From NCBI GenBank assembly GCA_002402965.1, contig DHGW01000092.1:37382-101381 (forward strand): 64,000 bases of DNA. The letters run 5' to 3'. Below, piece after piece: positions 1,802-51,500 of this stretch (within the stretch, counting starts at the first letter, position 1; every line of letters begins with the position of its first letter). The notes below the pieces were generated by a model that had not been told where the DNA came from, made no database searches, and worked only from the letters and a program-made list of their open reading frames with translations. The position numbers were made by a program, and so were the translations under genes. Source of the DNA: Bacteroidales bacterium UBA4788 (GTDB lineage Bacteria > Bacteroidota > Bacteroidia > Bacteroidales > VadinHA17).

Positions 1802-1805
1802 ATTT

Positions 1806-2696
1806 CTACCTGTGCCTGAACAGTGATATCAGAGGTTTGATATAGTCTTCACCGGTATTGACAGATGCCACATCAACTCCGCAGTTTACAAAAGTACCTG
1901 CAATGGTCTCGTCATGCTTTCTCCATTGTGCCGCATACTCCTTCCTGATGGCTGTCGATGAGGTGTCAATCCAGAGCTCCTTTCCGGACTCAGGGTCTGT
2001 CACCTTCATAAAACCGACGTCAGGCAGCTCCTTCTCTCGCCTGTCGCTGATACGCAGGGCCACCACATCATGCTTACCCGACGCTACGCGCAGCGCCTCG
2101 GTAAAGGAGGGAGCCATGAAGTCAGAAAGGATAAAGGCTGTACAGCGCTTCCTGATGATGTTGGTGAGATATTTGAGGGGCTCAGACAGGGATGTCCCCG
2201 ATCCCTGAGGCTCATAACTGAGCATCTCCCTGATGATCCTTAGCATATGACTCCTTCCTTTCTTTGGCGGGATGTATTTTTCTACCCTGTCAGAGAAAAG
2301 CATCAGCCCCACCTTGTCATTGTTGGCGATCACGGAATAGGCCAGCACGGCTGCTATCTCGGTCATCATCTCTCTTTTTGTGGTGGCTACCGTGCCAAAG
2401 TCGCCGGAACGGCTCACATCGACAAGCAGCATTACTGTCAGTTCCCTCTCCTCCTCGAAGATCTTGACGTAGGGATGCCCGAAGCGGGCAGTGACGTTCC
2501 AGTCGATGCTGCGTATGTCATCGCCAAACTGGTATTCACGTACTTCGCTGAAGGCCATACCTCTCCCGCGGAAAGCGCTGTGATACTTCCCTGCAAAGAT
2601 CTGTTGAGTCAGGCCGCGCGACCGTATCTCGATCTTCCTTACCTTTTTAAGCAGTTCTGTTGTTTCCACTTCTTTAAAGATGCTGTAAGAGAACAT
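1806..2696 (-). CDS. DUF58 domain protein (MoxR-associated, VWA-like)
   Basis: 296 aa. The N-terminus ELLKKVRKIEIRSRGL and the motifs YQFGDDIRSIDWNVTAR and MLLVDVSRSGDFG are typical of DUF58 proteins encoded next to MoxR ATPases. Confidence 0.85.
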   Translation of the reverse strand: MFSYSIFKEVETTELLKKVRKIEIRSRGLTQQIFAGKYHSAFRGRGMAFSEVREYQFGDDIRSIDWNVTARFGHPYVKIFEEERELTVMLLVDVSRSGDFGTVATTKREMMTEIAAVLAYSVIANNDKVGLMLFSDRVEKYIPPKKGRSHMLRIIREMLSYEPQGSGTSLSEPLKYLTNIIRKRCTAFILSDFMAPSFTEALRVASGKHDVVALRISDRREKELPDVGFMKVTDPESGKELWIDTSSTAIRKEYAAQWRKHDETIAGTFVNCGVDVASVNTGEDYIKPLISLFRHR

Positions 2697-3087
2697 GTGT
2701 GACCGTAAAAAACCATTCGTCCCGCTTCAGTTTGACAGTTATCACATTCCATCCGGATCTGTAGCTCCATTCGTTGACACCTGCAGACTCGTATCTTTCA
2801 TTCAGTTCCTTAACCCTTGCATCATACCCGCTGATGCCATATGTAATCCTTACCCCGTTGCAGCGGTCCCTGTCGTCCAGGAAGATCAGCCATGTCTCAT
2901 TGTCGTCTCCCGAGTAGTACTTCAGGTACCTGTAAACCTCATTCCGTACCGAGTTGTCAGGGGTCAGGCCCGGATTATCCCTGGCCATGGTCTCCCTGAT
3001 GCTCTTCCCGGTCAGGCCGATGAACTCCTGTGCCTCTGCCGGAACCAGCACCAGCACGATGATTATTGACAGCAGCAGCTTTTTCAT
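2674..3087 (-). CDS. small secreted protein of unknown function inserted between MoxR and DUF58
   Basis: 137 aa with signal peptide MKKLLLSIIIVLVLVPAEAQ. It sits 3 nt downstream of the MoxR stop, and its 3' end overlaps the DUF58 start by 23 nt. I recognise no family. Confidence 0.55.
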   Translation of the reverse strand: MKKLLLSIIIVLVLVPAEAQEFIGLTGKSIRETMARDNPGLTPDNSVRNEVYRYLKYYSGDDNETWLIFLDDRDRCNGVRITYGISGYDARVKELNERYESAGVNEWSYRSGWNVITVKLKRDEWFFTVTHVLLQHL

Positions 3088-3090
3088 AGA

Positions 3091-4086
3091 CTACGGAACC
3101 TCGACCGTATTGAGAATCTCTGTAATTATCTGATCCTGTGTGATATTCTCGGCTTCTGCCTCATATGTCAGTCCAATGCGGTGGCGGAGCACGTCAGCGC
3201 ATAGCGAGCGCACATCTTCAGGAACCACGAATCCTCTGCGCCTGATGAAGGCGTATGCTTTGGCAGCCATTGCCAGGCTGATACCGGCCCTTGGCGAGGC
3301 ACCGTATGCAATCAGCGGGGTGAACTTCGAAAGGCCGAACTTATCCGGCTGGCGTGTGGCAAAGACTATATCAAGGATGTAGTTTTCGATCTTCTCATCA
3401 AGGTACACCTCCTTGACCACGCTCCTGGCGCGAATTATATCCTCTGGCTTCAGGATGGTTCTGGCTGTCGGGAACTCGCTTGCCAGGTTCTCACGGATGA
3501 TCATGCGCTCCTCCTCCTTTTCCGGGTAGGTTATCACCACCTTAAGCATAAACCTGTCAACCTGTGCCTCGGGAAGAGGATAGGTTCCCTCCTGCTCAAT
3601 GGGGTTCTGTGTTGCCAGTACCATAAATGGTTCATCAAGCCTGTACGTGTTGTCACCGATTGTCACCTGCCTCTCCTGCATGGCCTCCAGCAGCGCACTC
3701 TGCACCTTCGCCGGAGAACGGTTGATCTCATCGGCAAGAATGAAGTTGGCGAAGATGGGCCCCTTGCGCACCACGAACTCCTCCCTCTTCTGACTGTAGA
3801 TCATAGTACCGATGAGGTCGGCAGGCAGAAGATCGGGGGTGAATTGTATCCTGCTGAATTTAGTGTCAATTATCGAGGCGAGGGTCTTGATGGCAAGGGT
3901 CTTTGCCAGACCCGGCACACCCTCGAGAAGTATGTGACCATTTGACAGCAGCCCGATGAGCAGTGAGTCTGTCAGATGGCGCTGGCCTATTATCACCTTG
4001 TTGATCTCCTGCCTGACCAGGTCAACAAAAGCGCTCTCCTTTTCAATCTTCTCATTCAGGAGCCTGATGTCGGTTGTGTGTTCCAT
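3091..4086 (-). CDS. moxR: MoxR-family AAA+ ATPase
   Basis: 331 aa. Walker A GVPGLAKT, Walker B FILADEINR, and LATQNPIEQEGTYPLPEAQVDRF, which is characteristic of MoxR/AAA_3. Confidence 0.93.
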   Translation of the reverse strand: MEHTTDIRLLNEKIEKESAFVDLVRQEINKVIIGQRHLTDSLLIGLLSNGHILLEGVPGLAKTLAIKTLASIIDTKFSRIQFTPDLLPADLIGTMIYSQKREEFVVRKGPIFANFILADEINRSPAKVQSALLEAMQERQVTIGDNTYRLDEPFMVLATQNPIEQEGTYPLPEAQVDRFMLKVVITYPEKEEERMIIRENLASEFPTARTILKPEDIIRARSVVKEVYLDEKIENYILDIVFATRQPDKFGLSKFTPLIAYGASPRAGISLAMAAKAYAFIRRRGFVVPEDVRSLCADVLRHRIGLTYEAEAENITQDQIITEILNTVEVP

Positions 4087-10630: not shown

Positions 10631-12406
10631 TCAGGCTGTCCTCATCCAGTTGACCAGCCCTTTCTTCACGATAATCTCCTTCAGTTCCGGTGGCAGCGGC
10701 TCGAAGGCGAACTGTTTATTCCCGACCTTCAGTGTGCCTTTGTCAAAGTCAATATCCACCCTGTCGCCCGGCTTATAGGCTTCCACAGCCTCCTTGTGGA
10801 CTATGAGCGGAAGACCCTGATTGATGGAGGAGCGATAAAAGATTCGGTTGACGGATTTAATTATCACCGCCTTGATTCCAAGTTGAGCCAGACCAACAGA
10901 AGGATGTTCTCGGGAGCTTCCGCAGCCGAAGTTGTCGCCGGCAATGATTATGTCACCTGGCTGGGCATTCTTGCTGAAGGAGGGGTCAAAATCGCCGAAC
11001 AGTAACGGTAGTATGGCAGCCGCATCCGAACTCATTACAGTGTAGGTGTGTTTCCCTGCAAACATCTGGTCAGTGTTCAGGTTATCCACATCGGCATAGT
11101 TCCATACGTTACCCTCTCTCCTGCTCTCACCCTCACTGATTGTGTTGGTTTTGCTCTGGGGCGGATTGAATGGGAAGAGTTCGTCGCCCTTCACAATCCT
11201 CGGATCAGTGATCACACCGGTAATTGCTGAGGCGGCGACTGTTGCCGGGGAGGCAAGATAGATTGAGGCTTCTTTGTTTCCCATCCTGCCAAGGAAATTG
11301 CGGTTGGCAGTTGATATCACCGTGTGCCCGGAAGCAGGAATTCCCTGGCCTGTGCCAAGGCAGGGTCCGCAGCTGGGACTGAGGATATTGGCTCCGGCCT
11401 CAATGAGGTCGGTGACTAGCCCCTCCCTGATGGCCTGCAGGTAGATATCCTTCGATGCAGGTATAATATGAAGCTGGAATCCGGGCTTTACCAATGCTCC
11501 CCGCAGAACTGCTGCTGCAGTCCTCAGATCTTCAATCCTTCCGTTGGTGCAGGTGCCAATGAGACCTTCGTGCACTACCGTACCGGCTACGGAGGCAACC
11601 GACTTGATATTATCCACATGGTGTGGTGCGGCAACCAGAGGGAAGACCTTTGCCAGGTCAATGGAGATGCGGCAGCGGTACTCAGCAGCTTCATCAGCCC
11701 ATAAGCCGCTCGTATCTGAGCCGATGTACTTCTGGAGAACCTCATCAGCCGGAAAGACAGCATTCTTTGCCCCCATCTCCGAAGCCAGGTTGGCAACAGT
11801 CATCCTATCGCTCACACTAAGGGTGGCAACGCCCTCACCGTGGAACTCAATGGACATGTAGTTGGCGCCGTCAGACCCCAGCATTCCGATAATCCACAGC
11901 GAAAGATCCTTGGCACTGACACCCGGACGAAGCTTGCCCTTAAGGTCGATCCTCATTGAAGGCGGCACCAGGAACCAGGTCTCACCCCTTTTCCATATTC
12001 CTGCTGCCTCTGTGCGGTCTATTCCTGCTGCAAGTGCGTTGAATGCCCCTGCAGTGCATGTGTGACTGTCGGACCCGACAATGATCATGCCCGGACGGGC
12101 GTGATGTGACATCATCTGGTGACAGATGCCCATGCCGGAATCATAAAACTTCCTGATGCCCTGTGCGGCAACAATGTTCCGGATGTCCTGGTATTGCGTC
12201 GCAAGTTTCGCGTCGGCGGGAGGCGCATTGTGATCGAGGACCACCACCATCTGTTCGGGATCGGAAACCTTCTCCCCTCCCATCTTGCGGAAAGTCTGGA
12301 AGATACTGGAGGTGTTGTCATGCGTCAGGATAAGATCAGGTTTCCTGAATACCACCGCTCCCTCGGGAGCGCCAAGCACCTTTTCAACAAATGTCATTGG
12401 TTTCAT
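10631..12406 (-). CDS. aconitase-family hydro-lyase, fused large (LeuC/HacA-like) and small (LeuD/HacB-like) domains, paralog 1
   Basis: 591 aa. Motifs LTHDNTSS, GSDSHTCTAGAF, and the cluster cysteines GTCTNGRIEDL and SCGPCLG. The C-terminal swivel domain has IIAGDNFGCGSSREH. Substrate unknown. Confidence 0.85.
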   Translation of the reverse strand: MKPMTFVEKVLGAPEGAVVFRKPDLILTHDNTSSIFQTFRKMGGEKVSDPEQMVVVLDHNAPPADAKLATQYQDIRNIVAAQGIRKFYDSGMGICHQMMSHHARPGMIIVGSDSHTCTAGAFNALAAGIDRTEAAGIWKRGETWFLVPPSMRIDLKGKLRPGVSAKDLSLWIIGMLGSDGANYMSIEFHGEGVATLSVSDRMTVANLASEMGAKNAVFPADEVLQKYIGSDTSGLWADEAAEYRCRISIDLAKVFPLVAAPHHVDNIKSVASVAGTVVHEGLIGTCTNGRIEDLRTAAAVLRGALVKPGFQLHIIPASKDIYLQAIREGLVTDLIEAGANILSPSCGPCLGTGQGIPASGHTVISTANRNFLGRMGNKEASIYLASPATVAASAITGVITDPRIVKGDELFPFNPPQSKTNTISEGESRREGNVWNYADVDNLNTDQMFAGKHTYTVMSSDAAAILPLLFGDFDPSFSKNAQPGDIIIAGDNFGCGSSREHPSVGLAQLGIKAVIIKSVNRIFYRSSINQGLPLIVHKEAVEAYKPGDRVDIDFDKGTLKVGNKQFAFEPLPPELKEIIVKKGLVNWMRTA

Positions 12407-12424: not shown

Positions 12425-14242
12425 TTAAACTTTGCCTAACAGACCGCCTCTTTTATATATTTCATACTGTGCGTCGTAGAAAGGATTAATTAAAGTCTTC
12501 ATTCCATTGCGCTCATTGACAGCCTCACCGGTAAGAAGGTTGACAGAGATGACATCCTGGTCTTTCAGATCGATGACATCAAGTGAGTTGCAGGTGAGCA
12601 CCGGGAATGCAGCGTTAATAGCATTGCGCTCGTAAATAGCCCCGAATGAGCGGGCAATCACTGCCTGAACACCCAGTGACACGAAGCAGTCGACCGCCTG
12701 CTGGCGTGAACTGCCGCTGCCGAAGTTCCTGCCGGCGACGATGAGGTCACCTGCCTGAGCCCTTTTTGCGAAGTCCTTGTATCCTTCCAGGTTATCGAGG
12801 GCATACTGCCCCATCTCGCGTATGTCGGTGATGGCCAGGTAACGGTTATGGAAGATCATGTCGGTATCAATGTTGTCACGGTCTATCAGCCATACTCTGC
12901 CCCTGATGAGGGTCGGCCTCTCTACTGTTCCGGTCATTTTAGGTGCGGAGGCAGCCAGCGGCTGTTCGGAGCTGTACCTGGTCTCAAGTGGTGAAGCCGG
13001 AACAGCGTCAGGCGTGGTTATGTATCCGGCAATTGCCGATGACGCCACCACTGAGGGGGATGCAAGGAAAACGCTTCCCTGCCCTTGTTTGCCGGGGAAA
13101 TTTCTGTTGCCAGTGGAGATGGTCACCTCTCCCTTGCCATTCTGTCCCACCTGTCCGGCGGCACAGCCTGCACAGCCTGCATTTGAGACCAGCGCGCCGG
13201 CATCCTTGAATACCACCATGAGTCCCTCGTCAAGGCACTGTTTCCAAATGGCATCCGTAGAGGGCACTATCTTGAGGACAACACCAGGAGCGACCTTCTT
13301 TCCCCTGAGTATCGCAGCCGTCATACGCATATCCTCGATCCGGCCATTGGTGCAGCTGCCGATGAAGGCCGAGTCAATCCTTGTAACAGGTAACTCCTTC
13401 ACTCCCACAGTGTCATGCGGTTCACCAGGGCGTGATACCATCGGTACAAATGTAGTGACGTCAATATCGGCCGTGATATCATACTTTGCATCCGCATCTG
13501 CATAAACAGGCTCAAAGGGCGACCTGGCTCGTGCCCTGCAATAATCGATAATCCCTGGTGTAGGCGGGAAGAGGATGATTATTCCGCCCATCTCCGTTGC
13601 CATGGAGGCGATGGTGATGCGCTCATCAAGGGTCATCTGTTCAGTGGCATCACCGTAGAGCTCAATACTGTATCCCAGCAGGGTATTGGCGCCATAGATG
13701 CGCAAAAGATTCAGGATGACATCCTTTGCTGTTACGCCCTCCGGCAGTGTGCCGTTAAGGGTCAGCTTCACCGAGGCCGGAACCTTAAACCATACACGAC
13801 CGCTGTTCCATGCCGCGGCGATGTCCATATCACCCATCCCCTGGCCGAAAGCTCCCACGGCTCCGAGAATGTTGGCATGCGAGTCGGTCGATACCGCCGT
13901 CGAACCCGGCCAGACATAACCCTCTTCCATGAGCAGGTGGGTGCCTATTCCGGCATTGATGTCGTAAACCTTTATGCCGTTGTTACGAGCATATTGCCTG
14001 CATATATGCTGGTTGACCGCATACTTCTGATCGGAGCCCGTGGGATTGCAGTCGAAGGTAAAGAGAGTCTTCTCCGGATCATCAACCTTCAGTCCGAAAT
14101 CGTTCAGGTTCTTCACCACATTTGCGCCGCCGAAGTCCCTGGCAGCGCGGGCGTCAATGGTTATGTCAACAATGTCACCCGGCTTAACTGTATCGTATCT
14201 GGAGTGAGCGGCAATGATTTTTTCAGTTATTGTCATTCCCAT
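12425..14242 (-). CDS. aconitase-family hydro-lyase, fused large and small domains, paralog 2
   Basis: About 605 aa from MGMTITEKIIAAH; the longest ORF starts at 14293. Motifs STDSHANILGA, GSCTNGRIEDM and GCAGCAAGQ, with C-terminal IVAGRNFGSGSSRQQA. It sits 18 nt upstream of paralog 1 and is clearly divergent from it. Confidence 0.85.
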   Translation of the reverse strand: MGMTITEKIIAAHSRYDTVKPGDIVDITIDARAARDFGGANVVKNLNDFGLKVDDPEKTLFTFDCNPTGSDQKYAVNQHICRQYARNNGIKVYDINAGIGTHLLMEEGYVWPGSTAVSTDSHANILGAVGAFGQGMGDMDIAAAWNSGRVWFKVPASVKLTLNGTLPEGVTAKDVILNLLRIYGANTLLGYSIELYGDATEQMTLDERITIASMATEMGGIIILFPPTPGIIDYCRARARSPFEPVYADADAKYDITADIDVTTFVPMVSRPGEPHDTVGVKELPVTRIDSAFIGSCTNGRIEDMRMTAAILRGKKVAPGVVLKIVPSTDAIWKQCLDEGLMVVFKDAGALVSNAGCAGCAAGQVGQNGKGEVTISTGNRNFPGKQGQGSVFLASPSVVASSAIAGYITTPDAVPASPLETRYSSEQPLAASAPKMTGTVERPTLIRGRVWLIDRDNIDTDMIFHNRYLAITDIREMGQYALDNLEGYKDFAKRAQAGDLIVAGRNFGSGSSRQQAVDCFVSLGVQAVIARSFGAIYERNAINAAFPVLTCNSLDVIDLKDQDVISVNLLTGEAVNERNGMKTLINPFYDAQYEIYKRGGLLGKV

Positions 14243-14353
14243 GGTCGTGAGGTTTTTTGTTGGTTCAGAGGCAAATTTAGCAATACGGATCAATCCCCGT
14301 TATGAAAAATATCATGCGTTGGATGCAGATTTAAGAGAGAATCCCCCGGAAAA

Positions 14354-36499: not shown

Positions 36500-40364
<3,865 letters not shown>

Positions 40365-40548: not shown

Positions 40549-40740
40549 ATGGAAACTAAAGACATTATCATTTATTCTGCAGTTATTGCGCTTGTAGGTT
40601 ACTCTCTTTATCGCAAATATGTAAAGAAACAGGGTGAAGGCAGCCCTAAAAAGTCAACCGGAATTTTTACACCCAGGGGTAACCTCAGGGATCAGCCTGA
40701 TGATTACGAGCCCTATGGCGGGAAGAAGAACGGAGAATAA
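40549..40740 (+). CDS. small single-TM protein, unknown function
   Basis: 63 aa with TM IIIYSAVIALVGYSLY followed by a charged tail. Its stop abuts the stop of the convergent ABC exporter with no gap. No homology recognised. Confidence 0.35.
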   Translation: METKDIIIYSAVIALVGYSLYRKYVKKQGEGSPKKSTGIFTPRGNLRDQPDDYEPYGGKKNGE

Positions 40741-42927
40741 TCAACTGCCCAGTTCCAGCTGGTCTCTGATGAGACTGTAGTAGATCCCCTTAAGAGAGGT
40801 GAGTTCGGCGTGGGTACCTGATTCGGTCACTTTCCCGCCTTCCAGTACCACTATCCTGTCAGCATGACGCACCGTGCTAAGCCTGTGCGCAACAATTACC
40901 ACTGTCCTGCCAGCCAGGAATCCTGCAAGTTTTTCCACAACAAGTCTTTCGCTTGAGGCATCGAGGGAGCTGGTGGCTTCATCGAGCAGCACCAGCGCGG
41001 GTTGCTTGTAAACCACTCTGGCAATCAGTATTCGCTGTCTCTGTCCCTGGCTCAGACCGTGTCCTCCCTGTCCGATACGGGTCTGAATTCCTGATGGCAG
41101 CGTATCGAGCAGAGGTTTCAGACAGGCTGTCTCTGCGGCCGTGGCTACTCTTCCCATGTCGGGATTATCTTCCCCGGGTGCAATATTCCCCAGGATTGTA
41201 TCGGGGAAGATATAACCCTCCTGCATCACGGTGCCGGTATTCCTTCTCAATGAGGAAATACTGATATCATCCAGTCTCAGGCCTCCCATCTCCACCGAGC
41301 CTTCAGCAGGATGATAGAAGCCCATCAGGATCTTCAGCAAGGTTGTCTTTCCCGATCCGCTCTCTCCCACCACGGCGGTGATTCTGCCGGCAGGTATACT
41401 CAGGTTAAGGTTTCGCAGCACCCATGGTGACCCCGGACCCTCATACCTGAAAGAAAGATTCCTGATTTCAATGTCAGCGCGCGCCGGCAAGGGAGCTCCG
41501 GCATCGGGTCCGCCAGACTCCTCCGGATCCATGGCATGCACTTCGGACAGGCGCTCCAGGCTGATCCGCGCATCCTGTGTCGCCCTCATGAAACTGACAA
41601 TCTGGGATACCGGACCGTTGAGCTGCCCGGTTATGAACTGCACCGCCAGCATCATGCCAAGGGTCATAGAACCGTTTATAACCAGCGTGGCTGAGATGAC
41701 AGTGATGATTATGTTAACTGACTCGTGAATCAGGGTTCCTCCTGCCGTCTGGAACTGAAGTATCCTGAGCCCTCTGACCCGGGTGGCATAGATCTCCTTC
41801 TGCAGCATCTCCCATTCCCTCCTGTTGGTAGCTTCGTTTCCCGCCAGCTTGATCTCCTGCATGCCGTTCACGATGTTTATCATTCTGTTCCCGGCTTCGG
41901 ACATCTGCATGAACCGGATGTTGTCAAGTCGCTCACGTGCAGGCATGAAGAGTGTAACATACAATATGTAAAATGTCGTCCCGGACAGAAACACCATCAG
42001 GACCGGGATGCTGTAGATGCCAAGCACCACCCCGAAAACTATGAAATTGAATAGCGAAAAGAGGATGGCAAGACTCGACGAGGTAAGGTAACTCTCTATC
42101 CTGCTGTTGTCATCAATCCTCTGTAATATGTCGCCGTTCAGCTTCGTATCGAAGTAGGCTATTGGTAATCCCATCAGCCTTGCAAGGAAATCGGAAACGA
42201 TCCGGATATTCAGCCTGGATCCCACATGCAGCAGAATCCAACCCCTGCTGAATTCAACTGTCAGACGGCCGGCAATGAGAGCCAGCTGTCCAGCCAGGAT
42301 CAGGTATATTAACCTTACATCACTGTTGGCAATACCCCTGTCAATGATTGCCTGTGTCATGAAGGGGAAGAGGAGCTGGATGGCGCTTGACAGTATCAGA
42401 CCAGCGATAAGAAGCACTATCTTCTTTCTGTAAGGTCTAAGGTAGGGTGCCAGGAACTCAAATCCTCCCCTGGAAGGCGGATCATCCTTAAGTTCCGCAA
42501 ATGACGGGCCCGGTTCAACAAGCAGAGCCATCCCCGCCGGTTCACCACCTGTCTCTCCTGATAGCCATCCCTGCTTGAACTCTTCATGGCTCATCCTGAG
42601 ACTGCCGATGGCCGGGTCACTAACCCATACTGCCCTTTCGTTCACCCTGTTTACAACGATGAAGTGGTTCTGCCGCCAGTGCACTATACATGGAAGCGGA
42701 GCACCCTCTATCAGCCTGCTGAACGGAATCCTGACTCCTGCCGCCCTGAAACCAATACTCTCTGCAGCTGACTTTAATCCCAGCATGGAGACTCCCTCAC
42801 GTGTTATCCATGACCTCTTTCTGATGGTCTCCAGGGAGAGACGCTTACCATGACTGCGTGCTACCATGCTCAGGCATGCCGGTCCGCAATCCATTGCATC
42901 ATATTGCCTCACAAAAGGGTAGTTCAT
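40741..42927 (-). CDS. peptidase-C39-domain ABC transporter (double-glycine leader peptide processing/export, ComA/LagD-like)
   Basis: 728 aa. The N-terminal C39 domain has the catalytic Cys in QYDAMDCGPACLSM, His in HWRQNHFIVV and Asp in VSDPA. It is followed by a 6-TM domain and an NBD with GESGSGKTT, LSQGQRQR and LVLLDEATSSLD. Confidence 0.92.
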   Translation of the reverse strand: MNYPFVRQYDAMDCGPACLSMVARSHGKRLSLETIRKRSWITREGVSMLGLKSAAESIGFRAAGVRIPFSRLIEGAPLPCIVHWRQNHFIVVNRVNERAVWVSDPAIGSLRMSHEEFKQGWLSGETGGEPAGMALLVEPGPSFAELKDDPPSRGGFEFLAPYLRPYRKKIVLLIAGLILSSAIQLLFPFMTQAIIDRGIANSDVRLIYLILAGQLALIAGRLTVEFSRGWILLHVGSRLNIRIVSDFLARLMGLPIAYFDTKLNGDILQRIDDNSRIESYLTSSSLAILFSLFNFIVFGVVLGIYSIPVLMVFLSGTTFYILYVTLFMPARERLDNIRFMQMSEAGNRMINIVNGMQEIKLAGNEATNRREWEMLQKEIYATRVRGLRILQFQTAGGTLIHESVNIIITVISATLVINGSMTLGMMLAVQFITGQLNGPVSQIVSFMRATQDARISLERLSEVHAMDPEESGGPDAGAPLPARADIEIRNLSFRYEGPGSPWVLRNLNLSIPAGRITAVVGESGSGKTTLLKILMGFYHPAEGSVEMGGLRLDDISISSLRRNTGTVMQEGYIFPDTILGNIAPGEDNPDMGRVATAAETACLKPLLDTLPSGIQTRIGQGGHGLSQGQRQRILIARVVYKQPALVLLDEATSSLDASSERLVVEKLAGFLAGRTVVIVAHRLSTVRHADRIVVLEGGKVTESGTHAELTSLKGIYYSLIRDQLELGS

Positions 42928-43043
42928 TGAACAGGCATGATTGGGAGTTTTACAGCATAAATATATCCATTATTTACCCACTTCGGGTGCAGCTACTGAA
43001 AATGTGCCGGGTAGCATTTTTCAGAAATCGATTGCGGAAATTG

Positions 43044-43051
43044 TATATTTG
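43044..43051 (+). promoter_or_regulatory. candidate -7 promoter box TATATTTG (TAnnTTTG) upstream of the sigma-factor gene
   Basis: Exact match to the Bacteroidota -7 consensus, 18 nt upstream of the TTG start at 43069. No well-spaced -33 TTG. Confidence 0.35.
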
Positions 43052-43068
43052 CCAATTAAACCGCTTGT

Positions 43069-43635
43069 TTGGGATTATTCAGAAAGTATTCGGACACTGA
43101 CATCATAGATGGAATCAGGAAACAGGACAACAGGATTCTGAACTGGCTCTATGATTCCTGTTTTGAGATGATCCGTGATCACCTCAGAAAAAACAGCGGG
43201 TCGGATGATGACGTGCATGAAGTCCTCCAGGAGACTGTGGTGATATTGTACAAACAGGTTACCGGTGATGGGTTCAGTCTCACAACCGATCTGAAGGGAT
43301 ATGTCTACGGTGTGGCGCGCAATGTCTGGAATGCCCAATTGAGATACCGTTCGCGTCTGGTGGCTCTGGAATCCGATCCGGCAGATCATACGGCTGCGGA
43401 GGAGATGAACGATGCTATTCTTGAGAGGATTGTTGCCCGCTCCTTCGCTCTCCTCGGGGAAGACTGCCAGATGGTGCTAAACCTCTACGGCGAAGGTTCA
43501 TCCTATGAAGAGATAGCCCGAAGAATGGGATTCAGGAATGAGACCTACGCAAGAAGGAAAAAGTACCTCTGCAAGGAGGCTTTGATGGAAATCATCAAGA
43601 CTGATCCGGAATATCAGGATCTGGGTCCCTTATAG
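43069..43635 (+). CDS. sigma-70 family RNA polymerase sigma factor (ECF-like, regions 2 and 4 only)
   Basis: 188 aa. Region 2-like VHEVLQETVVILYKQV...YVYGVARNVWN and region 4 HTH CQMVLNLYGEGSSYEEIARRMGFRNETYARRKKYLCKEAL. There is no in-frame ATG near the N-terminus, so the TTG start at 43069 is assumed. Confidence 0.8.
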   Translation: MGLFRKYSDTDIIDGIRKQDNRILNWLYDSCFEMIRDHLRKNSGSDDDVHEVLQETVVILYKQVTGDGFSLTTDLKGYVYGVARNVWNAQLRYRSRLVALESDPADHTAAEEMNDAILERIVARSFALLGEDCQMVLNLYGEGSSYEEIARRMGFRNETYARRKKYLCKEALMEIIKTDPEYQDLGPL

Positions 43636-46600
43636 ACCAATCCCATAATAAGTGTTGCCACCAGCAGGAAGGCGAGCAGTCCTATGTACAGTTTCACCCT
43701 GTTAAACCAAAGTGGCGTGTCATCTCCGTATATCACCAGAGCCGACCAGTAGTATGGATGCGACCTGCCCTGGTAGGCAGTTCGGAGGTATTTCAACCGT
43801 GCGTTGCGCAGTGCGGAACTCTTTGTCTGGCCGCTTCTCATGTTCTTGTAAAAGGAGTGTATCACCTCTGATGCGGAGATGTCATCTACCGCCCACATCG
43901 ACATCACGGCCGAACGGCTTCCGGCATAGAGAAAGCCCCGTGCCAGGCTCAGTATTCCCTCTCCGCTCACAAGCATACCAGACCCGGTGTTGCAGGAGCT
44001 GAGCACAACCATCATTGCCTGAAGCGGGAGGCTGTAGACCTCGTAGGTATTGAGCATACCATCGTTGCTGCCGCCGCCGCCACCCGTAAAGAGCATCCTG
44101 GAGAAGGCAGGCCGGCTGTCGTCTACAAGTGTATGCATTGCCAGGTGAAGTATCTTGAAGTTCCCTGCTTCCCGCTTGAAGGCCTCTTCGCTTGCCCCTA
44201 CACCGATGTAGGCCTTCCCTCCGCACTGGTTGACTGCATCTTCGGCCTCCAGGATGGCATATGGCAGGTCACGGATCTCTCCCCTCAATGCAGGCCAGTC
44301 AATCAGCAGCGAATCATCAATCTGCACCCCTTCATAACTGGGTGCAAAGGCAACTAGCCTGTTGTTCAGACTCCTGCTCCTCTGAATGGTCTCCGACGAG
44401 AGAGTCACACTGTAGATATAAGAGAAACGGTATTTCTTAAGGGCAAAAGGAGCATCACGGTATAAAAGCCCGGGACTCCGGAACTCCTCCGTCACAAGGG
44501 CCTCGAACGGCAGGTATGAAAGGATGTTGTCAGGTGAGATCACTATCTTGTCACCGATGAGGTAAGGCTCAGCCGGCTCAATCAGAATCCGGTAAAGGCT
44601 GAGCGCCAGATCCATGTATTCATTGAATGGAGCACGTGAGCCACTTGTCGCCGGCGCAGTTGACAGCATGCTGCGGAATCGTTTCAGTGATGAGAAAAAG
44701 CTTGAATCGATGTCGCGGGTGATCACTTCACTCCTCCTGTGGTTGGCAACAAATATATACAGCCTTTCATCCGTCAGGACATAGCTTAAGAGGTTTGCCC
44801 TGCGGCCGATAACGCTGCTGACCTTGTTCAGAGGCGTCACCTCACTCCTGAATTTAAGGTTATAATAGGCCGGGTAATTATTCTCAAAGATTCGCACAAG
44901 AGAGTCACGCGATCTGAGCAGCCGGAAAGTCACTCCCTCCCAGGTGGCCAGTCTCTGAGTGTCAGGCACCGCTTTCAGCTTCTCCTTAAGCATAAGATCC
45001 TTGTAGAATCCAATCTCTCTTCTGATCTCTCCGTCAAGTTCTGTCAGCTCCCCGGGCAGGGAGAAGCGTGCGGCATTGAGCTCCCTCATGGAAGTAAGGA
45101 ACCCTGCCACCTTGCTCCTTTCTGAGAATTCAAAAAGGCCGGCAAGCGACTCGCGGTCATGGTCCGCCTCATATAGTTCTGCATAATTGTCAATGATGCC
45201 CGTATATATATCCCTGGAGTAGGAGCTGAAGCTTGTCCTGCTCTCCTCCTCGCTCATCTCCAGCCTGCGGCGGTCATACAGCGAGGTGATCCTGCTTCCG
45301 GCTGCAACAGCCTGCCTTAGGTAGTCCATATTTCTTTCTGACCGTGCAAGAGCGTTCAGGGCATCGTATCTCAATTCAAGAAGACGCAGGTCTTCTTCAG
45401 AGATGCCGTTGATCTCACCGTCATCACGGTTGCCCGGTTTGGCCGGCTCAGATGAAATGGCCATTCCCTCAGTGATAGCCAGCACCTCCTCATACCTGCC
45501 CGCATCTGTCAAAGCCTGGGCATACTTGACGGTTACAAATTTTCTCATCGAGACATCCCACGGATTTCTGCGCACATAACCGAGACACTCATCGTAAAGC
45601 GCAAGCGACCGGTCACTGTCACCAAGACTGTTGGTAATAAAGTCAGCGACCGAAACCAGCATAATGAAATATTCCCTGCTCTCCGGCCCGTAAGCGCTTC
45701 TCACCCTTTCCAGTCCTTCTTCCAGGACTTTTTCTCCTTCCTGTATCCTGCCGGCGTGAGCCAGAAAAGCTGAATAATTGATATGAAGCAGAAATTTGTC
45801 ATGAGTATTCTGCCCGTCCCTGATGGCCAGTCCCATCCTGAACTGCTCCTCTGCCTCCAACGGCTGATCAAGCCTGCGGTGCACCTGGGCCATGGTATTG
45901 TGCATCAGTATCCTTGAATCAACACTGGCGGCAGGATCCCTGTCATAGATTCTGAGTGCCTCCCTGCAGTAAACAAGTGATTTGTTGTACTCCAGCGTCC
46001 GATAGAGGCTCAGCCCTATCACGTGGTAGAGGTCAGCCTGTATCTTCGACGGAATCTCATCAGGGTATAGCCTTGAAATTTTCAGTCCTGACTCTGCCAG
46101 CTCAATTGCCTGGCCGGCGTCATTCAATTCAAGGCATATGCTGGCAAGATTGAGGTAGTTGGTTGCCAGCCCCGACGAGTCACTTCCTGAAACGGCCCTT
46201 TTGGCTTCCAGACCCCTGACTCCAAGCCCGTAGGCATGCGTATAATTCCCCAGCCTGTGGAGTGAGACAGCCATATTGCTGAGACCGTTGCCATACCTCC
46301 TGTCATAAAGAGAAAGCCTCTCCCGGAAGCTGGTGGAGACGCTGAAACAATCATAGGCACGATCGAACCTGTTCGACTGGTAATGCTGAACACCCACAAA
46401 ATAATAAGCATCCGAAAGCAGAAGGGTATCCATGATAAGTGTACCGTCAATGATTATTTCGATCTCCCCTGCCATCCTTTCCGCACCGGATGAATTTGCC
46501 CGGCGTTCAAGAAGAACGGCAAGTGAATCACTCAGCTCCCTGAGCCTCAATTCCCCCGAATCTTTCATTTCATTGCCCGCAGTGGCTTCTGAGCCAGATC

Positions 46601-46679
46601 CCCGGGCCAAACCAGGAGTTCCGCTGATAACCGCAAAAAACAGGTATGAAACAATGAGTATGTCTGCCCTCAGACTCAT
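43614..46679 (-). CDS. TPR-CHAT protein (caspase-fold CHAT peptidase domain), N-terminal signal/anchor and C-terminal TM
   Basis: 1021 aa. N-terminal hydrophobic ILIVSYLFFAVISGTPGLARG, then about 600 aa of TPR-like repeats. The C-terminal CHAT domain has His in FKILHLAMHTLVDD and Cys in MVVLSSCNTGSG. Terminal TM LYIGLLAFLLVATLIMGLVY. Confidence 0.85.
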   Translation of the reverse strand: MSLRADILIVSYLFFAVISGTPGLARGSGSEATAGNEMKDSGELRLRELSDSLAVLLERRANSSGAERMAGEIEIIIDGTLIMDTLLLSDAYYFVGVQHYQSNRFDRAYDCFSVSTSFRERLSLYDRRYGNGLSNMAVSLHRLGNYTHAYGLGVRGLEAKRAVSGSDSSGLATNYLNLASICLELNDAGQAIELAESGLKISRLYPDEIPSKIQADLYHVIGLSLYRTLEYNKSLVYCREALRIYDRDPAASVDSRILMHNTMAQVHRRLDQPLEAEEQFRMGLAIRDGQNTHDKFLLHINYSAFLAHAGRIQEGEKVLEEGLERVRSAYGPESREYFIMLVSVADFITNSLGDSDRSLALYDECLGYVRRNPWDVSMRKFVTVKYAQALTDAGRYEEVLAITEGMAISSEPAKPGNRDDGEINGISEEDLRLLELRYDALNALARSERNMDYLRQAVAAGSRITSLYDRRRLEMSEEESRTSFSSYSRDIYTGIIDNYAELYEADHDRESLAGLFEFSERSKVAGFLTSMRELNAARFSLPGELTELDGEIRREIGFYKDLMLKEKLKAVPDTQRLATWEGVTFRLLRSRDSLVRIFENNYPAYYNLKFRSEVTPLNKVSSVIGRRANLLSYVLTDERLYIFVANHRRSEVITRDIDSSFFSSLKRFRSMLSTAPATSGSRAPFNEYMDLALSLYRILIEPAEPYLIGDKIVISPDNILSYLPFEALVTEEFRSPGLLYRDAPFALKKYRFSYIYSVTLSSETIQRSRSLNNRLVAFAPSYEGVQIDDSLLIDWPALRGEIRDLPYAILEAEDAVNQCGGKAYIGVGASEEAFKREAGNFKILHLAMHTLVDDSRPAFSRMLFTGGGGGSNDGMLNTYEVYSLPLQAMMVVLSSCNTGSGMLVSGEGILSLARGFLYAGSRSAVMSMWAVDDISASEVIHSFYKNMRSGQTKSSALRNARLKYLRTAYQGRSHPYYWSALVIYGDDTPLWFNRVKLYIGLLAFLLVATLIMGLVYKGPRS

Positions 46680-46811
46680 CTGTATGGTTCTTCTTTCTTC
46701 CGCCGGTAAAAGTATAAAACAATCCGTTACAGTAACAGCAACTTTCCTGTCGTTATACAGCCCTGTTCTTCAGTATGTTGCATTTTTTTTGAAAAAAAGT
46801 CGATTTTTTCG

Positions 46812-46836
46812 TGTCACAAAAGGGCACTTTGTGACA
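46812..46836. promoter_or_regulatory. perfect 9-bp inverted repeat TGTCACAAA-N7-TTTGTGACA (candidate operator) upstream of the GG-peptide gene
   Basis: Read directly from the sequence: 46812-46820 TGTCACAAA and 46828-46836 TTTGTGACA. It lies 53 nt upstream of the peptide ATG in the divergent CHAT/peptide intergenic region. A T8-G-A7 palindrome sits at 46783-46798. Confidence 0.4.
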
Positions 46837-46888
46837 TGTACGGTATAAATGACAATTAAACCCTGATTCATTAATAAAACCCAAAAAA

Positions 46889-47026
46889 ATGAAAACCCTG
46901 AAAATTGAAAACTTCTCTGATTTTGTTCTTTCAAACGAGGAAATGATTAATGTACGCGGCGGAAACGGCGGCAAAAACGATTCGGTAACTGATCCAACCA
47001 GGCCTCCGGTGGTAATAGAGATCTGA
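46889..47026 (+). CDS. double-glycine (GG) leader peptide precursor, 45 aa
   Basis: Not in the ORF track because it is under 60 aa. Manual translation gives MKTLKIENFSDFVLSNEEMINVRGG/NGGKNDSVTDPTRPPVVIEI. The leader matches the Bacteroidota bacteriocin-type signal pattern MKxLKxxxxxxxLSxEEMxxxxGG. A C39 exporter lies 4 kb away. Confidence 0.75.
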   Translation: MKTLKIENFSDFVLSNEEMINVRGGNGGKNDSVTDPTRPPVVIEI

Positions 47027-47214
47027 ATTGAATGACAGAGCCGGTTTTTCCGGCCAGCATATATAGCATAACGGGGGCAGATCTGCGTTAAGCAGAGATA
47101 CCCTGTCATCCGGCAGCGTGCGCGCAAGCCGGTGCAGTGCCCGGAACGGCATGCAGATGATTGTCAGCAACTATTTGGTTGATAATTTATAAGTGTGAAA
47201 TAATAATATACAAG

Positions 47215-47961
47215 ATGAAAACAAGGAATGTTAACAATGCCATTGAGGATTGGCTCGGCGGTCAGACAGACAAGGCCGGGGAGGAATGGCTCATCAGAGA
47301 GATGAAAAAAGACCCGGCGCTGGCAAGGGAAATCACTCTCAGGAGAAAAACAGATGAAATCCTGGCTGAAAGGCAGGTGATTGATCTAAGGAATATGCTC
47401 ACGGCCATAGAGAGGAAAAAACGCTCTGCAGGCACACTCCGCAGAACTATGGTGAAGAGTGCGAAGTATGCAGCTGCAGTTGCGCTTGTTGCACTCATCT
47501 CATCAGCTCTATACCTGGGACTGAGGCCGGGTGCATCACCTGATGAACTGTACTCTTCCTATTATTCCCGGTACGAATCACCTGGTGCCGTGAGGTCCGC
47601 CGTCAGTCCGGGCAACACATTGATGGAGAATGCCATCGCCTCCTACTCTGCAAAAGAGTATGAAAAGGCTATCATGTACCTTGAACAGGTGATAAACACC
47701 GGACAGGAAGGAATGGAATCGGTCTTCATGCACGGTATGGCCAACATGGAGGTGAAGAATTATCCGGTGGCGAGCAGATCATTCACCCGCGTCATCGAAC
47801 ACAATGACAACCTGTACCTCGAAGATGCCGAATGGTACCTGGGCCTGTGCTACATGATGACCGGCAACAAGGAAAAGGCAACGAAACAGTTTGCTGCAAT
47901 AGCATCCTCCGGCAGCAGGTACAGCAAACAGGCTGTCAGACTGGCACGAAGGATTAAATAA
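47215..47961 (+). CDS. single-pass membrane protein: N-terminal cytoplasmic anti-sigma-like helix region, TM, periplasmic TPR domain
   Basis: 248 aa from the ATG at 47215. IEDWLGGQTDKAGEEWLIREMKKDPALAREI resembles the N-terminus of Bacteroidota anti-sigma factors. TM AAAVALVALISSALYLGL. C-terminal TPR-like repeats include YEKAIMYLEQVI and AEWYLGLCYMMTGNKEKA. Confidence 0.65.
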   Translation: MKTRNVNNAIEDWLGGQTDKAGEEWLIREMKKDPALAREITLRRKTDEILAERQVIDLRNMLTAIERKKRSAGTLRRTMVKSAKYAAAVALVALISSALYLGLRPGASPDELYSSYYSRYESPGAVRSAVSPGNTLMENAIASYSAKEYEKAIMYLEQVINTGQEGMESVFMHGMANMEVKNYPVASRSFTRVIEHNDNLYLEDAEWYLGLCYMMTGNKEKATKQFAAIASSGSRYSKQAVRLARRIK

Positions 47962-47987
47962 ATCCACAAACCGATAAAGACATTCAT

Positions 47988-48803
47988 ATGTTCGAGATTC
48001 TACGCAGTGCCTTCAAAGAGACGGGTATGACAGCAGCGACAGGCCATGAAAAACTGAACAAGATGATCAACAGACCAAATATACTTGCAGGCGTTTCTCA
48101 TGAGGTAAGAACTCAGATGAACTCAATCGTCGCCTTTTCATACCTGATGAACAATGAGAGGTTCAGTGACAACGAAAAGCGTGAGTTCTCAGAGCAGATA
48201 ATTTCATCATGCGAACAGCTGATCGGATTGTTTGAAAATTTCTTTGACACCGCCTCCCTTGAATCAGGGTCAACAAGGGAAAATCTCCGTGAGACAGACA
48301 TTACAAGACTTTTCGAGTCCCTTACCTCAGAATTCAGGGTTTTCATGAGGAAAAAGGGACATGATAATGTCGTTCTCATCCAGGAAGACAACCTCCCGGA
48401 CAAGCTGATGCTGAAGCTAGACGTGGCGAGGATAACAAGAATTATCAGCAATCTGTTCAGGGACGCACTCGACAGTACTTCTTCAGGGTTTATAAAAGTC
48501 GGGTGTACCTACAACGATGAGACAATAACATTTTACGTAAAAGATTCTGGCCAGGGTTTCCCAAGAAGTAGCAACCTGCTGCTTTCCGACAATCCTGAGA
48601 TCCAACATTCCGAAAGTCAGGATACCTATTCCGCTATGAATTTAATCCTGGCCAGAAATCTTATTCTCGCAATGGAGGGCAATATCAGGGTTGAGCCCAA
48701 CGATGCCGGAGGAACATCTGTATTCGTCTCTTTACCTGCCAGGGAGTGCTCTGGCTTGAAAATACTCACCGGTACCTCTTCAGAGAGTAAAATCGCAATC
48801 TGA
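47988..48803 (+). CDS. minimal soluble histidine-kinase core (HisKA + HATPase_c), no sensor domain, no TM
   Basis: 271 aa. H-box ILAGVSHEVRTQMNSIVAF about 35 aa from the N-terminus. N-box-like IISNLFRDALDS, G1 KDSGQGF and G2-like GGTSVFVSLP. Confidence 0.75.
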   Translation: MFEILRSAFKETGMTAATGHEKLNKMINRPNILAGVSHEVRTQMNSIVAFSYLMNNERFSDNEKREFSEQIISSCEQLIGLFENFFDTASLESGSTRENLRETDITRLFESLTSEFRVFMRKKGHDNVVLIQEDNLPDKLMLKLDVARITRIISNLFRDALDSTSSGFIKVGCTYNDETITFYVKDSGQGFPRSSNLLLSDNPEIQHSESQDTYSAMNLILARNLILAMEGNIRVEPNDAGGTSVFVSLPARECSGLKILTGTSSESKIAI

Positions 48804-50873: not shown

Positions 50874-51500
50874 TCAGGGAATATGCATGAATTTATGTGC
50901 CTGAAGGGAAACTCTCCATCCGGGGTTTTTCTTTACGTATTCTGTTATTTCCGCAATTATCTCACTGTAACGGCTCCACTCAGGTTGCAGTAGAAGCTGG
51001 CAGCCTGGCTTCACCTTCTCTTTATATATCTCGGCATCCTCAAAATCAGTGCCACCCTGTATTACCACCTTTAGCTCATCTGCCAGGGGCAATATCCCCG
51101 GGAGCGGAGGAGAGCCCCTTTTAGGCGACAGGGTGATCCAGTCCCATGATCCCGTAAGGGGGAATGCACCGGAAGTCTCAAGGTATGTCTTGATTCCCTT
51201 TGATCTAAGCAGTTCGCATAACGGACCCATATCCCACATCAGAGGTTCACCGCCGGTGACCACAACCGAATCGGCCCCTGCCGCAAGGACGTTCGACGCT
51301 ATGACATCTATCCCCACCATAGGGTGCAATCCGGCATCCCATGAATATTTGGTATCACACCAGCTGCAGCATATGTCGCATCCGCCAACCCTGATGAAAT
51401 AAGCGGCCTTGCCAGTGTTGCACCCCTCGCCCTGGATGGAGTAGAATTCCTCCACAAGTGGCAGCCTGTGCCCGTCAGTAACCGGACTACTTCTTTTCAT
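50874..51500 (-). CDS. queE: 7-carboxy-7-deazaguanine synthase (radical SAM)
   Basis: 208 aa. FYSIQGEGCNTGKAAYFIRVGGCDICCSWCDTKYSW is the QueE-type cluster and substrate motif. Confidence 0.88.
   Translation of the reverse strand: MKRSSPVTDGHRLPLVEEFYSIQGEGCNTGKAAYFIRVGGCDICCSWCDTKYSWDAGLHPMVGIDVIASNVLAAGADSVVVTGGEPLMWDMGPLCELLRSKGIKTYLETSGAFPLTGSWDWITLSPKRGSPPLPGILPLADELKVVIQGGTDFEDAEIYKEKVKPGCQLLLQPEWSRYSEIIAEITEYVKKNPGWRVSLQAHKFMHIP

Follow-up and report, generated by a model that had tools for sequence, protein, structure and literature searches.

A 64-kb window (64,000 nt of contig DHGW01000092.1, forward-strand positions 37,382 to 101,381) from the uncultured Bacteroidales metagenome-assembled genome (MAG) UBA4788 carries a six-gene module in which an extracytoplasmic function (ECF)-type sigma factor lies beside a membrane-anchored tetratricopeptide repeat (TPR)-CHAT protease, a single-pass transmembrane (TM) TPR protein, a double-glycine (GG) leader peptide, a peptidase-containing ABC transporter (PCAT) and a histidine-kinase core. 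We tentatively read this module as a split, DdvA-like sigma/anti-sigma/CHAT switch of the cell envelope with an exported peptide loop, an interpretation that we place a little short of probable and that draws on gene content, intact catalytic residues, predicted topology, linkage in multiple contexts, promoter architecture and fold relationships. Gene order among relatives points to the sigma/TM-TPR/TPR-CHAT triad as the core unit, with the peptide as a near-constant companion and the histidine kinase, PCAT and an associated adaptor as an accessory set.

Gene content and protein features

The original prediction for this DNA described six adjacent genes at 40741–48803, an arrangement confirmed here by open reading frame (ORF) and domain scans: all six ORFs are intact and carry the domains ascribed to them. 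The genes and the associated nucleic acid elements are as follows.

40741–42927 (−): PCAT exporter, 728 aa; C39 peptidase domain, six-helix TM domain and nucleotide-binding domain
43069–43635 (+): sigma factor of the ECF type (group 4) with a TTG start, 188 aa; TIGR02937
43614–46679 (−): membrane-anchored, predicted periplasmic TPR-CHAT protease, 1021 aa; CHAT and TPR_12
46812–46839 (+): two-part, promoter-like motif TGTCACAAA-N11-YGACATG(TA), some 50 nt upstream of the ATG that opens the peptide gene
46889–47026 (+): GG-leader peptide precursor, 45 aa; leader MKTLKIENFSDFVLSNEEMINVRGG, predicted 20-aa core NGGKNDSVTDPTRPPVVIEI
47040–47054 (+): hairpin GCCGG-TTTTT-CCGGC, just 3′ of the peptide stop codon
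47215–47961 (+): single-pass TM-TPR protein, 248 aa; TM helix 85–103 and a periplasmic three-repeat TPR domain
47988–48803 (+): soluble histidine-kinase core, 271 aa; HisKA and HATPase_c (Pfam)

Comparisons below draw on a genome scan of 80 Bacteroidales MAG loci, out of 218 relatives found, and on loci (L) and proteins (P) cited by number, among them more distant ones; the genome of every relative is, like the source, an uncultured MAG.

The TPR-CHAT protein is organized, by hydropathy and charge, as a signal-like N-terminus, a TPR array, the CHAT domain, a C-terminal TM helix and a basic tail. Pfam recognizes CHAT (PF12770, 177 bits) and TPR_12, and the intact His/Cys dyad noted in the original prediction is retained throughout the family, with H845, H849 and C896 invariant in 73/73 orthologs. 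A TPR array followed by a CHAT domain with this dyad is the architecture of the TPR-CHAT proteases separase, Csx29 and DdvA. Sequence searching against the PDB returned no match, and the relationship emerged instead from a fold search: the top Foldseek matches of the AlphaFold2 model (pLDDT 82) were Csx29 (E 2e-13), human separase and Myxococcus DdvA, with values ranging to 1e-12, the DdvA structures being 8rw5 and 8rot (E ~1e-12). Hydropathy and tail charges fit the earlier proposal that the CHAT and TPR domains face the periplasm; most of the protein is predicted to be periplasmic, with the CHAT domain near the membrane. Outside the TPR and CHAT regions the protein has only its signal-like N-terminus and C-terminal anchor, and an anti-sigma domain is absent. 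Within the close clade, the CHAT proteins end in an invariant ...GPRS tail. Distant generic TPR-CHAT homologs (contexts P0107 and P0120) were set aside as uninformative, with no consistent partners.

The sigma gene, whose 3′ end overlaps that of the CHAT gene by 22 bp, had been described as a sigma-70 region 2/4 factor. That description stands at the level of TIGR02937 (45.8 bits against a cut-off of 42.9), whereas the Pfam region 2 and region 4 (r4_2) matches fall under their gathering scores. The best PDB sequence matches are the ECF factors SigE and SigH, and a search for relatives found 1161, which among the matches listed are mostly 188 aa long.

The true start of the TM-TPR protein, set by conservation, is the ATG at 47215. 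An 84-aa basic, helical N-terminal side precedes TM helix 85–103 and the TPR domain, and the predicted topology places the N-terminus in the cytoplasm and the TPR domain in the periplasm. The AlphaFold2 model (pLDDT 73) contains three N-terminal helices of moderate confidence before the TM helix. Its TPR domain resembles YbgF, BamD and the TPRs that bind Hsp70/90 C-terminal tails, at generic significance; Foldseek returned generic TPR domains only and no anti-sigma structure. Of the earlier description of this protein as anti-sigma-like, the single TM helix and the N-in/TPR-out topology hold, whereas the N-terminus yields no significant Pfam or PDB sequence match, and in the window copy no anti-sigma or zf-HC2 Pfam match appears even at E ≤ 1. 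Across the family, zf-HC2 (PF13490) matches 29 of 130 members at E ≤ 1; these matches are weak (best 6e-4), and no other non-TPR Pfam family recurs. The Joint Genome Institute labels one member "anti-sigma factor RsiW"; among the matches listed, source labels are "hypothetical" or "TPR repeat protein". An anti-sigma role is indirectly supported by these weak zf-HC2 matches, the RsiW label and the three modelled N-terminal helices, together with the overlap or abutment of the TM-TPR and sigma genes in three distant contexts, and the N-terminus is best regarded as a putative zinc-less, anti-sigma-like domain.

Two further features of the TM-TPR family were observed. Relatives of about 500 aa (P0367, P0376, P0391, P0402 and their relatives) carry three to four tandem N-terminal modules before the TM helix, with the consensus IExYLxGELxxxExxxFExEL..N..L. 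A juxtamembrane Y..YY..Y(7)RS motif (residues ~106–128, window positions 47530–47600) is kept down to family members of 25% identity; as speculation, it could be a cleavage or docking site.

The peptide gene is the sole GG-leader ORF in the window and has a canonical double-glycine leader, which upholds its original identification. It is found in most of those of the 80 loci whose contig covers the region. The assembled set comprises 145 distinct precursors with 119 distinct leaders and 138 distinct cores. All 119 leaders have GG at −1/−2, V/I/L at −4, M/L at −7 and L/I at −12. The cores are mostly 15–20 aa long, contain 23% proline and have a mean charge of −1; 133 of the 138 end in I/L/F/V, and six contain Cys. 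A C-terminal PPxΦxΦ-COOH motif is kept across cores while the middle varies, the pattern expected for a ligand with a conserved receptor. Cores of other subfamilies differ strongly, yet they too are short, for the most part acidic and in many cases rich in Pro. The window core contains a second GG (NGG), which is not conserved, and cleavage after the first GG is predicted to yield the 20-aa NGGKNDSVTDPTRPPVVIEI.

Neither a maturase nor an immunity gene occurs at the locus, in agreement with the original prediction, and the earlier preference for signaling over a bacteriocin remains the better fit to cores that are short, linear, Pro-rich, slightly acidic and almost Cys-free. The nearby radical S-adenosylmethionine (rSAM) gene (50874–51500), considered as a possible maturase of a RiPP (a peptide made by the ribosome and modified after translation), was rejected: all its best matches are QueE, and the gene is absent from the nonsyntenic contexts. 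Assignment of the peptide to the rSAM-modified GG RiPP precursors of TIGR04149 was likewise rejected, as the model matches the leader only, at 18.8 bits against a cut-off of 25, and no maturase is adjacent.

The exporter matches Peptidase_C39 (PF03412, 121 bits), ABC_membrane and ABC_tran (Pfam). The intact Cys/His/Asp triad proposed for it corresponds to C14, H88 and D104, which together with Q8 are invariant in 69/69 orthologs, and its nucleotide-binding domain contains GESGSGKT, LSQGQ, LLDEAT and AHRL. NCBIfam bacteriocin-type ABC models match below their cut-offs. A C39 domain with catalytic residues, TM and nucleotide-binding domains and a nearby double-glycine substrate gene together mark the protein, by sequence, as a PCAT. 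In a sister subclade, a 429-aa HlyD-family adaptor (TIGR01843, 79 bits) is encoded after PCAT (21 loci, within L054–L080); the adaptor gene lies at 2048–3337 in L090 and also adjoins PCAT in L085, L091 and L092.

Neither a TM segment nor a sensor domain is present in the histidine-kinase core. Its H38 and its G1 box (DxGxG) are conserved; the family lacks a G2 box, with TYSAMNLI where GxGLGL is expected, and has an atypical ATP lid. At the second N-box Asn, which is Mg-binding, the window copy carries N159D, a position that is Asn in 61/65 orthologs. The sensor-less kinase core of the original prediction is thus borne out in its HisKA/HATPase_c content and its lack of sensor and TM segments, but the G2 box is missing and the window copy has the N-box Asp, and the protein may be a pseudokinase or a phosphatase-type protein. 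Its gene directly follows the TM-TPR gene in the window clade, in L085, L090, L091 and L092 and on the P0447 contig.

Recurrence among relatives

The whole six-gene block is present in 80/80 loci wherever the contig is long enough. The flanking genes (yidC, pyrG, DUF349, porE-like, queE and phosphatases) are equally syntenic, so this conservation alone is no proof of functional coupling. Over the same loci, CHAT and TM-TPR fall to ~34% identity while PyrG holds near 77%. More distant contexts were found by an exhaustive TM-TPR profile search (206 representative clusters at E ≤ 1e-30) followed by neighborhood look-ups. These amount to seven independent neighborhoods, a small sample, with TM-TPR relatives at 26–30% identity. 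Arrows give gene direction.

L085/L086 and L091: sigma →, ← CHAT, peptide →, TM-TPR →, histidine kinase →, PCAT →, HlyD →
L092: PCAT →, HlyD →, sigma →, ← CHAT, peptide →, TM-TPR →, histidine kinase →
L083/L084 and L093: sigma → and TM-TPR → (overlapping), ← CHAT, peptide →
L214/L215: sigma →, TM-TPR →, ← CHAT; no GG ORF beside CHAT
L089: ← CHAT, then two peptide → TM-TPR → pairs; no sigma gene within 10 kb

The neighborhood conservation called for in the original prediction therefore extends to seven contexts with unrelated flanks. CHAT adjoins TM-TPR in 7/7, a sigma gene is there in 6/7 and a GG peptide in 6/7; the histidine kinase, PCAT and HlyD set is present in 3/7. The peptide gene is divergent from CHAT in L083, L085, L089, L091, L092 and L093. 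In L083 and L093 the sigma and TM-TPR genes form one operon and overlap, and in L214 they abut, which is the classic layout of sigma/anti-sigma genes. The L214/L215 arrangement indicates that the sigma/TM-TPR/CHAT triad can stand without an adjacent peptide, kinase or PCAT. The two peptide/TM-TPR pairs of L089 are identical and in tandem. Homolog searches with sigma, CHAT and TM-TPR gave listed matches almost wholly from the same clade and no informative new contexts.

Pfam scans of most large ORFs in the window revealed no Cas7-11/gRAMP or Csx30/Csx31 gene and no response regulator, and window Pfam scans detected neither a fusion to a helix-turn-helix (HTH) or phosphatase domain nor any opp gene in the vicinity. 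PADLOC reported no defense-system match for the module, generic ATPase similarity apart. Elsewhere in the window, two adjacent aconitase-family paralogs (10631–12406 and 12425–14293, −) and a BatA-type MoxR AAA ATPase/DUF58-VWA cluster (752–4086, −) are ordinary genes of metabolism or the envelope, unrelated to the module. The DUF349 protein (38154–40364, −), whose gene is among the conserved main-clade flanks of the module, has a long, highly acidic, Glu/Val/Ala-rich, low-complexity N-terminus of ~150 aa. A conserved 63-aa ORF (40549–40740, +), which has a single hydrophobic segment and whose tail is DDYEPY, stops one base short of the convergent ABC stop codon; it is probably not a module member, as it tracks the flanking synteny and is absent from L083–L086.

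Promoter architecture

The motif upstream of the peptide gene, TGTCACAAA-N11-YGACATG, is asymmetric and combines invariant flanks with a spacer of variable sequence and fixed length. It occurs once in the window and is exact in 65/80 loci, including the subclade of 34–37% identity, in each case only at the peptide-operon position; one further locus of the 80 has a looser chance match elsewhere. The motif is unlike the Bacteroidota housekeeping promoter and is a candidate alternative-sigma promoter of the peptide, TM-TPR and histidine-kinase genes. Its position would make the peptide at least an output of the circuit, because the gene sits behind an alternative-sigma-type promoter. Housekeeping-type TAnnTTTG/A boxes lie upstream of the sigma, ABC and CHAT genes, including a sigmaA-like TAnnTTTA box before PCAT and a conserved GGAAAT..TATATTTG box before sigma. 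The window sigma gene stands alone behind its sigmaA-type box, without a co-transcribed TM-TPR gene. An E. coli-type promoter and terminator scan, ill-suited to Bacteroidota, gave counts not above those of shuffled sequence.

The hairpin behind the peptide gene is present in both minimum-free-energy and centroid folds and is kept in an alignment of 50 close loci; a distant subclade has a different hairpin in the same place. It may act as an attenuator or terminator, setting how much peptide transcript is made relative to downstream transcripts.

The distant contexts have a second bipartite class, GGGTwACCTTTT-N8-9-rGAATwAA. In L083 (9360, 14256 and 14819) and L093 (9388 and 14825) it lies upstream of the sigma/TM-TPR operon and again upstream of the peptide gene. 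It is also found before the peptide genes of L089 (7255 and 9580) and L092 (9490), and a near variant, AGGTAACC, lies upstream of the sigma gene in L214 (~9392). It is chiefly because the sigma operon and the peptide gene share one non-housekeeping bipartite promoter in these relatives that we tentatively assign the peptide to the sigma regulon; such sharing is what an autoregulated ECF sigma factor would give, and peptide control by this sigma is accordingly a plausible reading of the motifs. A third copy in L083 lies ~280 nt upstream of split Response_reg/LytTR genes.

Scanning metagenome contigs with a pattern derived from the peptide promoter, and thus biased towards it, gave at least 121 matches. 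Some 90 of these lie directly upstream of GG-peptide ORFs and ~20 at a fixed distance before other, unrelated recurrent genes. By this distribution the window-type motif is, as far as sequence can tell, a real promoter type with a wider regulon. The form GTGTCACAAA-N11-YGACATGTA was seen in metagenomes upstream of secreted proteins of ~320 aa with tail-fiber/S74-chaperone-like C-termini, ~247-aa "MASxSETGHAKNVANFD" proteins, HTH-like proteins of 76–83 aa, a 752-aa HEFTH metalloprotease and a lipoprotein. The nonpeptide loci are L100, L102, L124, L133, L134, L162, L101, L120 and L139, together with L181, L184, L209, L146, L152, L159, L188 and L172, and the recurrence of the GTGTCACAAA-type motif suggests the regulon of one alternative sigma factor.

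Proposed circuit, alternatives and precedents

In the split, DdvA-like switch that we tentatively favor, the sigma factor would be made constitutively from its housekeeping-type promoter and, we infer, held at the membrane by the zinc-less, anti-sigma-like cytoplasmic N-terminus of TM-TPR. The tail-anchored TPR-CHAT protein of the inner membrane would serve as a signal-gated site-1 protease, its protease domain positioned in the periplasm near the membrane. By analogy with DdvA, CHAT would cut its presumed substrate TM-TPR in the conserved juxtamembrane linker, and intramembrane proteolysis would then free the sigma factor. Free sigma would presumably read the bipartite TGTCAC...GACATG promoter and so drive synthesis of the GG peptide, new TM-TPR and the histidine-kinase core. 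PCAT is predicted to remove the 25-aa leader after Gly-Gly and to export a 20-aa linear, Pro-rich peptide ending in ...PPVVIEI-COOH. This peptide would most likely bind a periplasmic TPR domain and feed back on CHAT, and if the direction of its effect is positive, as we suppose, the loop would be autoinducing and resemble quorum sensing.

Several observations weigh against this proposal. The window TM-TPR protein has no non-TPR Pfam or NCBIfam match at E ≤ 0.01 and lacks the HxxxCxxC zinc motif, and a 22-sequence profile of its N-terminus retrieved only chance matches, to ribosomal protein L29, among PDB sequences; the three to four tandem N-terminal modules of the longer relatives are also unusual for an anti-sigma domain. 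The tie between motif and sigma factor in the window itself is one that we infer, and the window-type motif also precedes other gene families in metagenomes. No HlyD adaptor homolog is encoded anywhere in the window, and the adaptor is absent throughout the window's subclade. Among the contexts, L089 lacks a sigma gene within 10 kb of CHAT and the peptide/TM-TPR pairs, and L214 has the triad with no GG ORF next to CHAT, so that the peptide is either not obligatory or encoded elsewhere. The 80 main-clade loci, finally, add little independent weight.

What the peptide does within such a switch admits more than one reading. In one, which is possible yet doubtful, it mediates peptide quorum sensing: the periplasmic TPRs would read the GG peptide, CHAT would act as the site-1 protease of a split anti-sigma, and the sigma factor would re-transcribe the peptide gene. 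Another, unlikely to a similar degree, treats the peptide as output only; CHAT would be tripped by some other envelope signal, be it stress or, as has been proposed for DdvA, a protein of a phage or of the envelope, and the peptide would be exported as an effector, for example an antimicrobial, a modulator of surfaces or an alarm to neighbors. The placement of the peptide gene behind an alternative-sigma-type promoter suits an output, as does the triad without adjacent peptide in L214/L215. The motif before secreted, metalloprotease and tail-fiber-like genes in metagenomes suggests a broader envelope regulon, the HlyD adaptors beside PCAT in relatives point to export from the cell, and DdvA is thought to sense a protein signal (PMC11506125). 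An effector role is harder to reconcile with short, Pro-rich cores that are slightly acidic, look unstructured and differ from known class II bacteriocins and microcins, and with the lack of an immunity gene; PADLOC, moreover, found no defense-system match. The conserved C-terminal motif and the pairing of the peptide with the CHAT and TM-TPR genes (6/7) suggest, rather, a receptor–ligand relation.

Separase is held by its pseudosubstrate securin, and the separase/Csx29-type model of CHAT raises the improbable alternative that the peptide is a CHAT substrate or securin-like pseudosubstrate in the periplasm, which would inhibit the protease or be trimmed by it to give negative feedback. Peptide and CHAT genes are divergent neighbors in 6/7 contexts, and the absence of an HlyD adaptor from the window's subclade would fit delivery to the periplasm only. 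The pairing of PCAT with HlyD in relatives, however, implies secretion past the periplasm, the cores give no sequence evidence of a cleavage site, and they differ strongly between subfamilies.

Equally improbable is a split pathway of the ComD/BlpH kind, in which TM-TPR would be the transmembrane co-sensor of the histidine-kinase core and signal to an unlinked response regulator, with sigma and CHAT forming a separate system. A GG peptide, a PCAT and a histidine kinase make up the classic Gram-positive pheromone set (PMC7595303). All three are present at this locus; the sensor-less kinase gene always lies directly behind TM-TPR in type-A layouts, and the TM-TPR N-terminus has no significant anti-sigma match. 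Against this arrangement, L083, L093, L214 and L089 have TM-TPR and CHAT without an adjacent kinase of this type, and in the first three of these TM-TPR overlaps or abuts sigma. The window contains no response regulator, and the kinase combines a degenerate ATP lid with the N-box Asn-to-Asp change of the window copy.

Lastly, the very improbable view that the six genes are mere neighbors of no common function, kept together by a lineage-wide synteny that also holds the flanking housekeeping genes in the same order in 80/80 loci, is effectively refuted by the independent contexts, where the gene set recurs at 26–30% identity in at least seven unrelated neighborhoods with rearranged order and, in two of them, with a promoter motif common to the sigma operon and the peptide gene.

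The closest precedent for the split switch is DdvA/DdvS, not Craspase. DdvA of Myxococcus, which acts with the sigma factor DdvS, is the sole anti-sigma factor with a periplasmic TPR-CHAT region to have been characterized; it is proposed, not proven, to cleave itself in trans at the juxtamembrane linker, ahead of RseP, and DdvA-like proteins have been reported only in Myxococcota and one Comamonas (PMC11506125). Both systems couple an ECF-type sigma factor to a membrane-bound, periplasm-facing TPR-CHAT region with a His/Cys dyad, and in both cleavage probably falls in a flexible juxtamembrane linker, with intramembrane proteolysis to follow. DdvA, however, joins a zinc-binding anti-sigma domain and TPR-CHAT in one polypeptide, whereas the module distributes these parts over two proteins; DdvA controls a CBASS (cyclic-oligonucleotide-based antiphage)/CRISPR island and has no known ligand, whereas the module, found in Bacteroidales, links a GG peptide, PCAT and a histidine kinase and has no defense genes. 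The original prediction held that no CHAT-gated sigma circuit with a cognate GG peptide had been characterized. CHAT gating of a sigma factor as such has a precedent in DdvA/DdvS, but none with a GG peptide was found in the literature: a survey for CHAT together with sigma, anti-sigma, C39, GG or PCAT returned only DdvA, Craspase and a type III-B cascade, and among the papers listed none linked CHAT to GG peptides or to Bacteroidota.

In Craspase, Cas7-11/Csx29 cleaves Csx30, which is linked to an RpoE-like sigma factor, and a SAVED-CHAT cascade operates in type III-B (PMC10028731; bioRxiv 10.1101/2023.06.23.546230). These systems share with the module the TPR-CHAT fold and the theme of a CHAT protease freeing a sigma factor by cutting its inhibitor. 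They differ in being cytoplasmic and in their activation, which runs through CRISPR effectors and responds to RNA or cyclic oligoadenylate. The module protease is predicted to be periplasmic, no CRISPR gene accompanies it, and its sigma factor is matched only weakly by the III-E sigma model, at 21 bits where the cut-off is 100.

Like ComC/ComAB/ComDE and BlpC/BlpAB/BlpHR, the module combines at a single locus the precursor of a GG-leader peptide with a C39 exporter and a histidine kinase, and its peptide gene, too, is presumably controlled by the pathway to which the peptide is linked. The Com and Blp systems employ a polytopic membrane kinase and a LytTR regulator, whereas the module kinase is soluble, has an atypical ATP lid and has no regulator nearby. 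The likely transcription factor of the module is the sigma factor, two periplasmic TPR proteins and CHAT would be interposed, and the host is Gram-negative.

E. coli DegS is activated by C-terminal peptide motifs that end in a hydrophobic residue, and the module cores almost always end in I/L/F/V. The DegS/RseP/RseA/sigmaE pathway further resembles the proposed circuit in that a single-pass anti-sigma factor is released by a periplasmic site-1 protease. There, a PDZ serine protease senses misfolded porins, whereas the module would use a TPR-CHAT protease sensing a dedicated ribosomal peptide, and RseA-type and zinc-type anti-sigma domains are undetectable in the window copy.

Among the literature found, the only other pathway to join a PCAT, small signaling peptides and a membrane CHAT protease is heterocyst patterning in Nostoc, with HetC (PCAT), HetF (CHAT protease) and the PatS/HetN peptides (PMC10986499). 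The Nostoc genes are dispersed, the peptides are different, and no ECF sigma factor or TM-TPR partner is involved; what the two settings share is the theme alone. RRNPP systems (Rap/NprR/PlcR/PrgX) rely on cytoplasmic TPR receptor-effectors and Opp re-import, whereas the module TPRs are predicted to be periplasmic. Relative to these precedents, three features are undescribed: the division of the switch between two proteins, a dedicated GG peptide behind a promoter of the sigma type, and the accessory set of PCAT and histidine kinase.

The module would extend the DdvA principle, formerly taken to be confined to Myxococcota, to hundreds of Bacteroidales species. Because the protease and its anti-sigma-like partner are separate proteins, the proposed cleavage is testable in trans, and the two promoter motifs and the C-terminal motif of the peptide offer handles for regulon mapping and reporter assays. 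A linked, exported and, as the promoters suggest, sigma-dependent peptide is an obvious candidate for the missing signal. Should the quorum-sensing reading prove true, a TPR-CHAT-gated sigma pathway would have its first identified ligand, and Bacteroidota their first autoinducer system with a dedicated peptide; with the peptide as cue, the module would represent a new type of peptide cell–cell signaling in Gram-negative bacteria that are common in anaerobic digesters, sediments and wetlands.

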